From NCBI RefSeq assembly GCF_003334765.1, contig NZ_QOWT01000056.1: 11,286 bases of DNA. One strand, written 5' to 3'. The notes below the pieces were generated by a model, which saw nothing but the letters and a program-made list of their open reading frames with translations, searched no databases and was not told the origin of the DNA. Each line of letters starts with the position of its first letter. Positions within the stretch are counted from its first letter, which is position 1. Positions 7,766 to 10,605 of the stretch are shown one piece after another. Source of the stretch: Escherichia coli (GTDB lineage Bacteria; Pseudomonadota; Gammaproteobacteria; Enterobacterales; Enterobacteriaceae). The translations under genes were made by a program, and so were the position numbers.

Positions 7766-7782
7766 TAGTTCGGATTTTACTT

Positions 7783-7806
7783 AACCGGGTAAATTCGCCC
7801 GGTTTT
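7783..7806 (+). terminator. Intercistronic hairpin between yddB and pqqL (possible attenuator)
   Basis: 7-bp stem AACCGGG (7783-7789) / CCCGGTT (7798-7804) with 8-nt loop, running into TTTT (7803-7806). It lies 18 nt after the yddB stop and directly before the pqqL start. Confidence 0.3.
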
Positions 7807-7809
7807 CGC

Positions 7810-10605
7810 ATGGAGATAATTATGAGAAACCTCTGTTTCTTACTGACGTTAGTGGCAACTCTGTTGCTCCCCGGGCGGCTGATTGCCGCCGCCTTACCGC
7901 AGGATGAAAAGTTAATTACCGGGCAACTGGACAATGGCTTGCGATATATGATTTATCCGCATGCTCATCCAAAGGATCAGGTAAATTTATGGCTGCAAAT
8001 TCATACCGGTTCATTGCAGGAAGAAGACAATGAGCGCGGCGTGGCTCATTTTGTAGAACATATGATGTTTAACGGCACAAAAACATGGCCGGGTAATAAA
8101 GTCATCGAAACATTTGAGTCAATGGGTCTGCGTTTTGGTCGCGATGTTAATGCCTATACCAGCTATGACGAAACGGTGTATCAGGTGAGTTTGCCGACTA
8201 CGCAGAAACAAAATCTGCAACAAGTGATGGCAATCTTCAGTGAATGGAGTAATGCCGCAACCTTTGAAAAACTCGAAGTAGACGCTGAACGTGGCGTAAT
8301 TACTGAGGAATGGCGTGCCCATCAGGATGCGAAATGGCGCACCTCTCAGGCGCGCCGCCCTTTCCTGCTGGCAAATACCCGTAATTTAGACCGTGAACCT
8401 ATCGGCCTGATGGATACTGTCGCCACGGTCACACCGGCACAATTGCGCCAATTTTATCAACGCTGGTATCAACCAAATAATATGACCTTTATCGTGGTCG
8501 GCGATATCGACAGTAAAGAAGCGCTGGCGCTGATAAAGGATAATTTAAGTAAGCTTCCGGCTAACAAAGCAGCTGAAAATCGCGTCTGGCCGACAAAAGC
8601 CGAAAACCACCTGCGCTTTAATATCATTAATGATAAAGAAAACCGGGTGAACGGCATCGCACTCTATTATCGCCTGCCAATGGTACAAGTGAACGATGAG
8701 CAAAGCTTTATCGAACAAGCTGAATGGAGCATGTTAGTTCAGCTGTTCAATCAACGTCTGCAGGAACGCATACAGTCGGGCGAGTTGAAGACTATTTCTG
8801 GCGGCACTGCGCGCAGCGTTAAAATTGCACCCGATTATCAGTCGCTGTTTTTCCGTGTAAATGCACGAGACGATAATATGCAGGATGCTGCGAATGCATT
8901 AATGGCAGAGTTGGCAACCATTGATCAGCATGGTTTTTCTGCTGAAGAACTCGATGATGTCAAATCTACCCGCCTCACCTGGCTGAAAAATGCGGTTGAT
9001 CAGCAAGCTGAACGTGATTTACGTATGCTGACCAGTCGCCTGGCATCCAGCTCATTAAATAATACGCCGTTCTTGTCGCCGGAAGAGACATATCAACTTT
9101 CGAAACGTCTGTGGCAGCAAATTACCGTGCAAAGTCTGGCGGAAAAATGGCAGCAGTTAAGAAAGAACCAGGACGCATTTTGGGAGCAAATGGTAAACAA
9201 TGAGGTTGCCGCCAAAAAAGCATTGTCTCCTGCGGCTATCCTGGCGCTGGAAAAGGAGTACGCCAACAAAAAGCTGGCGGCTTACGTCTTCCCAGGCAGA
9301 AATTTATCGTTAACAGTAGACGCAGACCCACAGGCGGAAATTAGCAGCAAAGAAACGCTGGCGGAGAATCTGACATCATTAACACTTTCCAATGGTGCCA
9401 GGGTTATTCTGGCAAAATCCGCGGGTGAAGAGCAAAAGCTACAAATTATTGCCGTATCGAATAAAGGCGATTTAAGTTTCCCTGCGCAGCAAAAATCACT
9501 TATCGCGCTGGCAAATAAAGCAGTTAGCGGAAGCGGCGTTGGCGAACTCTCCTCTTCCAGCCTGAAACGCTGGAGTGCGGAAAATTCGGTAACCATGAGC
9601 AGTAAAGTCAGTGGCATGAATACGTTGCTCTCCGTTAGCGCGCGGACTAATAACCCTGAACCTGGTTTTCAGTTGATTAACCAGCGAATCACCCACAGCA
9701 CGATTAACGATAATATTTGGGCATCGCTACAAAATGCTCAAATTCAGGCGTTGAAAACGCTCGACCAGCGTCCAGCGGAGAAATTCGCCCAGCAGATGTA
9801 TGAGACGCGCTATGCTGATGACCGCACGAAATTACTGCAAGAAAATCAGATTGCACAGTTTACTGCCGCAGATGCGCTGGCTGCCGATCGCCAATTGTTT
9901 TCATCTCCAGCGGATATCACGTTTGTCATTGTCGGTAATGTCGCAGAAGACAAACTCGTGGCGTTAATTACGCGTTACTTAGGATCAATCAAACACTCTG
10001 ATTCGCCATTAGCCGCAGGTAAACCATTAACTCGCGCGACGGACAACGCATCGGTTACTGTAAAAGAACAAAATGAACCTGTGGCACAGGTTTCACAGTG
10101 GAAGCGTTATGATTCCCGGACACCTGTTAATCTGCCGACGCGTATGGCGCTCGATGCTTTTAACGTCGCACTGGCAAAAGATCTACGTGTTAATATTCGT
10201 GAACAGGCATCTGGAGCATACAGCGTTTCTTCTCGCCTCTCGGTTGATCCTCAGGCCAAAGATATCAGTCATTTGCTGGCTTTTACTTGTCAACCAGAAC
10301 GACATGATGAACTGTTAACGTTAGCGAATGAAGTGATGGTTAAGCGTCTGGCTAAAGGGATCAGTGAGCAAGAACTGAATGAATACCAGCAAAACGTTCA
10401 GCGCAGCCTCGATATCCAACAGCGTAGCGTTCAACAATTAGCGAACACTATTGTAAATAGTCTTATTCAATATGACGATCCTGCAGCATGGACTGAGCAG
10501 GAGCAATTGTTGAAACAAATGACGGTAGAGAATGTTAACACTGCCGTTAAACAATATCTTTCTCATCCGGTAAATACTTATACCGGAGTATTATTGCCAA
10601 AATAA
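7810..10605 (+). CDS. pqqL: Periplasmic M16-family (pitrilysin-like) zinc metallopeptidase, 931 aa
   Basis: Inverted zinc-binding motif H-F-V-E-H at 8047-8061 (HxxEH). N-terminal signal peptide MRNLCFLLTLVATLLLPGRLIAAALP. The length is consistent with two tandem M16 modules in one chain. The second ATG at 7822 has the better Shine-Dalgarno (GGAGA 7812-7816, 5-nt spacing), so the true start may be 7822 (927 aa); the longest ORF is reported here. Confidence 0.9.
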   Translation: MEIIMRNLCFLLTLVATLLLPGRLIAAALPQDEKLITGQLDNGLRYMIYPHAHPKDQVNLWLQIHTGSLQEEDNERGVAHFVEHMMFNGTKTWPGNKVIETFESMGLRFGRDVNAYTSYDETVYQVSLPTTQKQNLQQVMAIFSEWSNAATFEKLEVDAERGVITEEWRAHQDAKWRTSQARRPFLLANTRNLDREPIGLMDTVATVTPAQLRQFYQRWYQPNNMTFIVVGDIDSKEALALIKDNLSKLPANKAAENRVWPTKAENHLRFNIINDKENRVNGIALYYRLPMVQVNDEQSFIEQAEWSMLVQLFNQRLQERIQSGELKTISGGTARSVKIAPDYQSLFFRVNARDDNMQDAANALMAELATIDQHGFSAEELDDVKSTRLTWLKNAVDQQAERDLRMLTSRLASSSLNNTPFLSPEETYQLSKRLWQQITVQSLAEKWQQLRKNQDAFWEQMVNNEVAAKKALSPAAILALEKEYANKKLAAYVFPGRNLSLTVDADPQAEISSKETLAENLTSLTLSNGARVILAKSAGEEQKLQIIAVSNKGDLSFPAQQKSLIALANKAVSGSGVGELSSSSLKRWSAENSVTMSSKVSGMNTLLSVSARTNNPEPGFQLINQRITHSTINDNIWASLQNAQIQALKTLDQRPAEKFAQQMYETRYADDRTKLLQENQIAQFTAADALAADRQLFSSPADITFVIVGNVAEDKLVALITRYLGSIKHSDSPLAAGKPLTRATDNASVTVKEQNEPVAQVSQWKRYDSRTPVNLPTRMALDAFNVALAKDLRVNIREQASGAYSVSSRLSVDPQAKDISHLLAFTCQPERHDELLTLANEVMVKRLAKGISEQELNEYQQNVQRSLDIQQRSVQQLANTIVNSLIQYDDPAAWTEQEQLLKQMTVENVNTAVKQYLSHPVNTYTGVLLPK

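Follow-up and report, generated by a model that had tools for sequence, protein, structure and literature searches.

Escherichia coli pqqL: a probable start four codons inside the curated reading frame, and an upstream hairpin that may act as a leaky terminator or decay barrier

The DNA analysed here (the window hereafter) is a stretch of 11,286 nucleotides from Escherichia coli (RefSeq assembly GCF_003334765.1, contig NZ_QOWT01000056.1) that carries the ydeN-ydeM-yddA-yddB-pqqL genes of E. coli K-12 on the + strand, and the stretch used as query is identical to K-12. Two elements of the yddB-pqqL junction are considered: the start codon of pqqL, which encodes a periplasmic M16 metalloprotease, and a stem-loop lying just upstream of it. 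The yddA (3670-5355) and yddB (5393-7765) genes are recognized both as open reading frames (ORFs) and in the annotation, with agreement on the end of yddB, whose TAA stop (7763-7765) is directly followed by an in-frame TAG (7766-7768) to give tandem stops. Then come an A/U-rich unpaired spacer (7766-7782), the stem-loop (7783-7804), a first in-frame ATG (7810-7812), a GGAGA motif (7812-7816), a second ATG (7822-7824), and, from the latter, a pqqL coding sequence of 927 codons plus stop that ends at 10605. This junction is found in about 85% of complete E. coli genomes, at one copy each. The operon is repressed by Fur, and the RyhB small RNA (sRNA) raises the level of yddAB-pqqL RNA (PMC4676285).

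The start of pqqL has been annotated in two ways. As the earlier note on this DNA had it, the longest ORF begins at ATG 7810 and runs to 10605 (931 aa), and this is the form of the curated MG1655 record, NC_000913.3, where it occupies 1572407-1575202. RefSeq gene calls made by the Prokaryotic Genome Annotation Pipeline (PGAP) start pqqL at 7822 instead, for a 927-aa product, in all 10 of the PGAP-annotated E. coli chromosomes sampled, which include another K-12 derivative and strains of different lineages. Both forms of PqqL are common in public collections, with at least 1000 contigs each. The structural literature follows the longer form: the zinc ligands H80 and H84 (Grinter et al., 2019, PMC6793856) are given in 931-aa numbering, the only one in which these residues fall on HFVEH.

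Signals in the sequence favour the second ATG. The GGAGA that the earlier note had seen 5 nt before ATG 7822 is indeed there, separated from it by the spacer TAATT, and the 20 nt upstream of this codon form a duplex of -6.4 kcal/mol with the 3' end of 16S rRNA, a value within the top 5% of the 246 AUGs of the window and consistent with a genuine Shine-Dalgarno (SD) sequence. The region upstream of ATG 7810, CCCGGUUUUCGC, lacks such a motif, its duplex of -2.4 kcal/mol being equalled or beaten by 40% of window AUGs. The upstream ATG overlaps the SD of the downstream one, as the G at 7812 is also the first G of GGAG, and opening a ribosome-sized site is predicted to cost 13.5 kcal/mol at 7810 versus 8.7 at 7822. 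Folding predictions additionally place a weak A/U-rich hairpin at 7823-7842 that includes the UG of ATG 7822; this second hairpin is probably non-functional, and two non-compensated changes, at 7828 and 7838, are found in it in strain 2017-02-2CC.

Published initiation profiling points in the same direction. In INRI-seq, a synthetic pool of E. coli 5' regions is translated in vitro with retapamulin, and the pqqL oligonucleotide begins at 7780, which means that the whole upstream hairpin is included (Hör et al., 2022, PMC9825163). At the annotated pqqL start, Table S2 of this study lists 0, 0, 0, 5.9, and 6.8 counts per million (CPM) in the five replicates, whereas in Table S3 an in-frame site outside the annotation, 'ATT, +9', peaks at 126.9 CPM and was found in three of them. 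In INRI-seq, a peak can be assigned to any start codon on the list that lies 15 ± 3 nt upstream of it, a tolerance with which ATT 7819 and the adjacent ATG 7822 cannot be told apart. AUU starts are very rare in E. coli, and of the two codons ATG 7822, which GGAG precedes by six bases, is much the more likely to have occupied the P-site. The profiling sets at most 6.8 CPM at 7810 against 126.9 CPM one codon from ATG 7822, and favours the start preferred by the earlier note. The uidR gene provides a parallel in the same dataset (PMC9825163). It shows almost no signal at its annotated site (0, 0, 0, then about 5-10 CPM across replicates) and a clear peak downstream, with the same geometry, and was read by the authors as a 4-codon over-extension, which an N-terminal peptide confirms. 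The two cases differ in that the table names ATG +12 for uidR and ATT +9 for pqqL, and in that no N-terminal peptide of this kind can be expected from mature PqqL, since the signal peptide is removed.

This signal peptide comprises the first 22 codons from ATG 7822 (7822-7887, MRNLCFLLTLVATLLLPGRLIA) and, by inspection, has the features of Sec substrates cleaved by signal peptidase I: a short positive n-region (MR), a hydrophobic core (NLCFLLTLVATLLL), and a small-residue IA-A cleavage site (PGRLIA-AALPQD), nothing about it being unusual. Edman degradation of immunoprecipitated mature PqqL yielded AALPQD, which places cleavage after ...RLIA (Grinter et al., 2019, PMC6793856). The canonical signal peptide seen in the earlier note is borne out at the protein level. 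The same experiment is the N-terminal sequencing that the earlier note had put forward as a means of settling the start; it confirms the signal peptide and leaves the two starts unseparated, since AALPQD would result from either once the signal peptide has been removed.

Comparison with relatives informs the short interval between the two ATGs. The GGAG is invariant in all haplotypes, including that of Escherichia fergusonii, where its spacing to the second ATG is kept as well. Within Escherichia, the only change in codons 7810-7821 is A7818G (ATA to ATG, Ile to Met), present in two lineages. In E. fergusonii the same stretch reads ATG GAG AAA AAA ATG: second-position changes have turned Ile-Ile into Lys-Lys and created an A-rich spacer. 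From these substitutions the pattern leans towards non-coding, with too few events to decide between coding and non-coding. Both ATGs are retained in E. fergusonii, and the gene call there starts at the second, the equivalent of 7822. An orthologue from outside the genus, at 57% identity, has one ATG only and starts with MIKKISQL, of which MIKK is the short n-region.

Several of these observations also speak for a real or substantially co-used start at 7810, from which a 931-aa precursor with a MEIIMRN n-region would be made. The longest ORF, the curated MG1655 annotation, and the crystal-structure numbering (H80, H84) all agree with it; an ATG stands at this place in every Escherichia haplotype as well as in E. 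fergusonii, at a constant 12 nt before the second ATG, and MEKKMRK, the E. fergusonii version, would itself make an acceptable n-region; and the annotated site formally counts as detected by INRI-seq, with 5.9 and 6.8 CPM in two of five replicates. The profiling evidence for the downstream site has weak points of its own. The table names ATT (+9) rather than ATG (+12) and does not give the position of the peak, the assay is in vitro, and the downstream pqqL site was seen in three of five replicates only. In vivo, the Ribo-RET signal is zero at both pqqL starts (PMC9825163), as expected since the operon is Fur-repressed, and the TRAINSPOTTER N-terminomics tables contain no pqqL entry. A start at 7810 nonetheless appears unlikely, given that it lacks an SD (-2.4 kcal/mol), follows a hairpin that ends 5 nt upstream, has a predicted opening cost about 4-5 kcal/mol higher, and yields an INRI-seq signal about 20-fold below that of the downstream site, which may be spill-over, as for uidR. 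PGAP prefers 7822, the acidic Glu of MEIIMRN would neutralise the charge of the n-region, and the changes seen in the interval (Ile-Ile to Lys-Lys in E. fergusonii, ATA to ATG in two lineages) are spacer-like rather than protein-like.

Taken together, PGAP, the E. fergusonii gene call, the SD duplex energy, and INRI-seq identify ATG 7822 as very probably the pqqL initiation codon, producing a 927-aa precursor, which is the shorter product that the earlier note had regarded as the real one. The 931-aa MG1655 annotation is almost certainly four codons too long, and ATG 7810 is probably unused or marginal; minor, low-level use is possible in view of its conservation and of the MEKKMRK n-region of E. 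fergusonii. The 927-aa start is already implicit in the PGAP annotation and in a published high-throughput table, and is undiscussed in any paper. Its practical consequences are small and it leaves current understanding unchallenged: the MG1655 record and the residue numbering derived from it are probably four residues off the true precursor, the mature protein being unaffected.

The second element of the junction, the stem-loop, lies between the yddB stop and these two ATGs. In the DNA it is an inverted repeat, AACCGGGT (7783-7790) and GCCCGGTT (7797-7804), with AAATTC in between; in the + strand RNA the 5' arm AACCGGGU and the 3' arm GCCCGGUU enclose the loop AAAUUC (7791-7796). A run of four U at its 3' end (7803-7806), the first two of which belong to the stem, forms a weak terminator-like tail, and there is no U-run on the opposite strand. 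Five nt (TTCGC) separate the stem from ATG 7810, and the coordinates given in the earlier note for a hairpin with TTTT ending 4-6 nt before this codon are thus accurate. On its other side, 17 nt lie between the yddB stop and the stem, so that, judging from the size of the ribosome footprint, a terminating ribosome should not melt it.

Folded alone, the hairpin (8 bp with 5 G-C pairs, 6-nt loop) has a predicted energy of -12.8 kcal/mol and a z-score of -4.4, none of 200 shuffled sequences being as stable, and its G/C-rich stem has the dimensions of a Rho-independent terminator (at least 5 bp, loop of 3-8 nt). The 59-81 nt regions around it are of unexceptional stability (z about -1). On the + strand of the 11.3-kb window, a 30-nt hairpin matches or exceeds the stability of this one at thirteen loci. 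Intergenic sequence, which makes up approximately 14% of the window, holds five of these, and four of the five come just past the stops of ydeN, ydeM, yddB, and pqqL; from these figures, the chance of finding one in this gap of 44-56 nt is roughly 4-5%. Stability alone is thus modestly unexpected, and conservation in E. fergusonii adds weight.

Within E. coli, 3,668 of 4,636 records are identical over 7766-7830 and 967 differ at one to three positions. The stem G/C core is invariant among the variants read, bar one strain. In Escherichia sp. MOD1-EC7003, AA is replaced by GG at 7783-7784 with retention of G.U pairs. In strain 2017-02-2CC, C7796T affects the loop and C7807T lengthens the U-run to UUUUU, giving the tail UUUUUGCA, which is not called by the consensus terminator scan. 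The longest run identical to Escherichia sp. E1V33, with which identity is 87% over 6.2 kb, is that of positions 7769-7833, at 65 nt. The 65-nt region (7766-7830) was located in 4,635 genomes, with a median of 1 and a maximum of 2 places in each. Membership in the repetitive extragenic palindromic (REP) or bacterial interspersed mosaic element (BIME) class, or in another repeat family, was rejected on the ground that this 65-nt query is single-copy, although further copies of just the 22-nt stem-loop would escape such a test.

More distant comparison was made possible by the E. fergusonii locus (L097, L114), retrieved through a degenerate-pattern scan of metagenomes and a protein look-up. There, yddB is 78% identical to K-12 at the nucleotide level, and only 7 of the 17 positions of the spacer preceding the hairpin are identical (41%), so that the spacer 7766-7782 is not itself conserved. 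The stem (AGCCGGGUGGG/CCUACCCGGCU) has 11 bp, including 8 G-C pairs, with an energy of -22.2 kcal/mol and a z-score of -5.5; relative to K-12 it shows one double change from A-U to G-C, one change from U.G to U-A, and three added pairs. It keeps the five-nt gap to the first ATG and is followed by UUUUGU; with its tail UUUUGUAU, this hairpin is called by the consensus terminator scan, with 11 pairs. Over eight haplotypes, 96.9% of stem cells pair, with one double change, three one-sided compatible changes, and two disruptions. The L114 copy of E. fergusonii pqqL (CP125351.1) carries in addition an in-frame deletion of 687 nt, corresponding to window positions 8373-9059, that leaves 699 aa versus 927, and the PqqL protease may be decaying in this species.

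Outside Escherichia, a single orthologue was found, the one at 57% identity mentioned above, and its A/T-rich gap has no comparable hairpin. It lies on a Joint Genome Institute (JGI) metagenome contig of an A/T-rich organism (3300000333, 2081 nt), where a receptor gene ending in ...FWLQLDYEF is followed, after a 77-nt gap, by the pqqL-like gene. The pairing of a TonB-dependent receptor with a PqqL-like protease is thus seen outside Escherichia, in this instance without the G/C hairpin.

One way to read these data is that the hairpin has no function at all: it would be a palindrome that arose by chance or survives as a relic, and its conservation would reflect only how closely the Escherichia lineages are related. 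The window does hold thirteen equally stable hairpins. A7783T, which breaks the outermost A-U pair only, was present in five of the eight variant genomes read and, of the approximately 21% of E. coli genomes with a departure from K-12 here, appears to account for most, and G7802C breaks a C-G pair in one strain. Relative to MOD1-EC7003, conservation of 7769-7833 is below the locus average. Covariation comes down to a single compensatory event and is not significant, 127 of 500 shuffles doing as well. These points weigh against selection on the structure. Absence of function is nevertheless improbable in the light of E. fergusonii, in which the spacer has been randomised (41% identity) while three of three stem substitutions keep pairing and an insertion adds three pairs; the 65-nt identical run against E1V33, the longest in 6.2 kb, and the enrichment of stable hairpins just after stop codons in the window argue in the same sense. 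On these comparisons, the hairpin structure is probably conserved and selected, while unproven by covariation.

As to what it would be selected for, its position and tail suggest an effect on the transcript downstream of yddB. The three genes yddA, yddB, and pqqL are co-transcribed, with read-through into pqqL, as established by reverse-transcription PCR (RT-PCR) in strain CFT073 (PMC3855560), and yet yddAB and pqqL are tabulated as separate units in one transcriptome paper (PMC4145685). Given a single RT-PCR mRNA, any termination after yddB can only be partial, and both observations fit a leaky stop at this point. In such a scheme, the stem with its short U-run would act as a weak, leaky Rho-independent terminator or, equivalently, as an obstacle to 3'-exonucleases; part of the transcripts would stop after yddA-yddB, leaving the pqqL message below the receptor message, while read-through transcripts would still carry pqqL. 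As side effects, the stem would bury the ribosome site needed for ATG 7810 and keep its own 3' arm from pairing with GGAGA. The suggestion of the earlier note, that the stem-loop modulates yddB-to-pqqL read-through or translation, is plausible in view of a hairpin that is conserved, resembles a terminator in E. fergusonii, and is predicted to make the 7810 site costlier to open.

Two results weigh against a terminator. The K-12 tail, UUUUCGCA, has four U only, which is why the hairpin is not called by the consensus scan, as the latter requires at least 5 T in 8 after the stem. In addition, the Term-seq tables of Adams et al. (2021) list no 3' end at the hairpin, which is weak evidence as the operon was barely expressed there. 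For the hairpin, a role as leaky intrinsic terminator or 3' decay barrier after yddB stands about evenly balanced on these sequence comparisons, and we slightly favour, as the best overall explanation, the combination of a 7822 start with a weak terminator or decay-barrier hairpin. If this is true, it would explain why yddAB and pqqL appear as separate units despite one RT-PCR mRNA, and the hairpin would set the receptor:protease ratio of a protein-import system that aids the fitness of uropathogenic E. coli in systemic infection.

Could the hairpin instead act mainly on translation, selecting the start site and insulating the ribosome-binding site (RBS) with no effect on transcription or decay? 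When its 5' arm is scrambled in silico, the opening cost of the 7810 site falls from about 12.3 to 7.7 kcal/mol (about 4.5 lower) and that of the 7822 site rises from about 8.2 to 10.0 (about 1.5-1.9 higher), because the freed 3' arm (GGUUUUC) pairs with GGAGA. Disrupting the arm thus eases the upstream site and burdens the downstream one, from which it follows that the hairpin would also bias initiation towards 7822; E. coli and E. fergusonii have the same five-nt gap between stem and first ATG, and the INRI-seq transcript, which bears the hairpin, initiates downstream. Such a bias is doubtful as a target of selection, since both starts share one frame and the extra residues are lost with the signal peptide. 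Moreover, the predicted gain for 7822 is small, the missing SD already disfavours 7810, and the conserved, strand-specific U-run would be left without purpose. A mainly translational role is accordingly possible and rather doubtful.

A further alternative, of the papBA type, gives the hairpin a protective function on the other side: RNase E would cut within the spacer 7766-7782, and the hairpin would become a 5' stem-loop that stabilises a separate pqqL mRNA. By eye, GA-UUU at 7773-7777 fits the RN-WUU motif of RNase E, the stem is preceded by an unpaired, A/U-rich spacer in E. coli as in E. fergusonii, and the class has been described in E. coli operons (Dar and Sorek, 2018, PMC5927463). The yddAB-pqqL operon is absent from the supplementary tables of that study, the spacer sequence is not conserved, and the U-run after the stem would go unexplained. 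The cut would also leave at least 8 unpaired nt 5' of the stem. This is more than is known to be effective for 5' stem-loop protection, and we consider processing of the papBA type unlikely.

The control exerted on the operon by Fur and RyhB raises the question of whether Fur or some other regulator binds the inverted repeat as DNA, or whether RyhB targets it. GATAAT occurs at 7815; the best Fur-box match nearby reaches 12/19, a score equalled or exceeded at 46 sites in the window, and the best box is at 3666-3684, by yddA. Duplex energies of RyhB with the intergenic region range from -9 to -15 kcal/mol, where the mean over the locus is -14.0. A Fur box over the pqqL RBS was therefore rejected as not distinctive, as was RyhB pairing with the yddB-pqqL gap, which is no better than the locus average, and either role is very improbable for the repeat. 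No sigma-70 promoter-like site for pqqL was found between 7300 and 8300, and a scan of the whole window with Rfam 15 gave zero matches at gathering threshold.

A more elaborate version of the leaky stop would make the hairpin (7783-7806) a conditionally bypassed attenuator that uncouples PqqL from YddB and YddA despite their shared Fur-controlled promoter. Iron status or temperature could be the signal, as could translation of the 3' end of yddB or a factor acting in trans, and the stronger E. fergusonii hairpin, placed before a pqqL with a 229-codon deletion, would represent a switch locked towards 'off'. This is a speculative extension and we give it little credence.

Other features of the window were noted along the way. 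The yddB and pqqL ribosome-binding sites (5374-5392 and 7812-7821) share the motif GGAGATA followed by an A/T-rich spacer. The best Fur-box match of the window (15/19, GCTAATGATAACCATTCCC, 3666-3684) overlaps the ATG annotated for yddA (3670), and a further match, of 14/19, is found at 3768. In INRI-seq, no initiation was seen at the annotated yddA start, while a GTG at +93 (window position 3763) was detected in five of five replicates; the yddA start may thus be mis-annotated as well, PGAP retaining the long form. The small protein gene yneP (b4747) lies on the - strand at 3345-3467, antisense to the ydeM 3' end and to the ydeM-yddA gap, and a + strand hairpin at 3432-3459 within it (-16.8 kcal/mol) is among the most stable of the window. 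The 36-nt gap between ydeN and ydeM contains a strong hairpin (2183-2202, GCGGCGGATTTTTCCGCCGC, -16.2 kcal/mol) directly before the ydeM start region. Seven nt past the pqqL stop, a G/C-rich hairpin of 10 bp (10612-10636, -17.3 kcal/mol) precedes ATTTTAGC and is probably the terminator of the operon; it likewise has four T only and is missed by the consensus scan. Even this hairpin is negative on a d'Aubenton-Carafa-style score, which served for ranking only and was not relied on. Finally, a supplementary table of Adams et al. (2021) lists a 3' end inside pqqL, at about 9510 on the + strand (NC_000913.3 1573502, - strand). This pqqL-internal end may be a Rho-dependent site, in which case it would constitute a second point of polarity in the operon.

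Internal terminators and attenuators are known to set operon stoichiometry in E. coli, as illustrated by the rplL-rpoB attenuator and by T1 between rpsU and dnaG. Further intercistronic terminators have been described between mccA and mccB (PMC4231749) and in the ABC-importer operons of Clostridia (PMC9045158). The yddB-pqqL element resembles them in consisting of a G/C-rich hairpin with U residues just past the upstream stop, at a junction where read-through has been demonstrated; it differs in that the K-12 hairpin has four U and an 8-bp stem and fails the consensus scan. Intercistronic stem-loops that protect the 3' end of the upstream cistron, as in malE-malF, puf, and menBCE (Dar and Sorek, 2018, PMC5927463), offer a second comparison: here too, a stable, conserved hairpin stands directly downstream of a cistron and could block 3'-exonucleases after downstream cleavage. 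In contrast to the malE-malF element, which is a REP repeat, the yddB-pqqL hairpin is single-copy and much weaker. In kind it is an ordinary hairpin, and it would fall among the intercistronic stem-loops already known to reshape operon stoichiometry.

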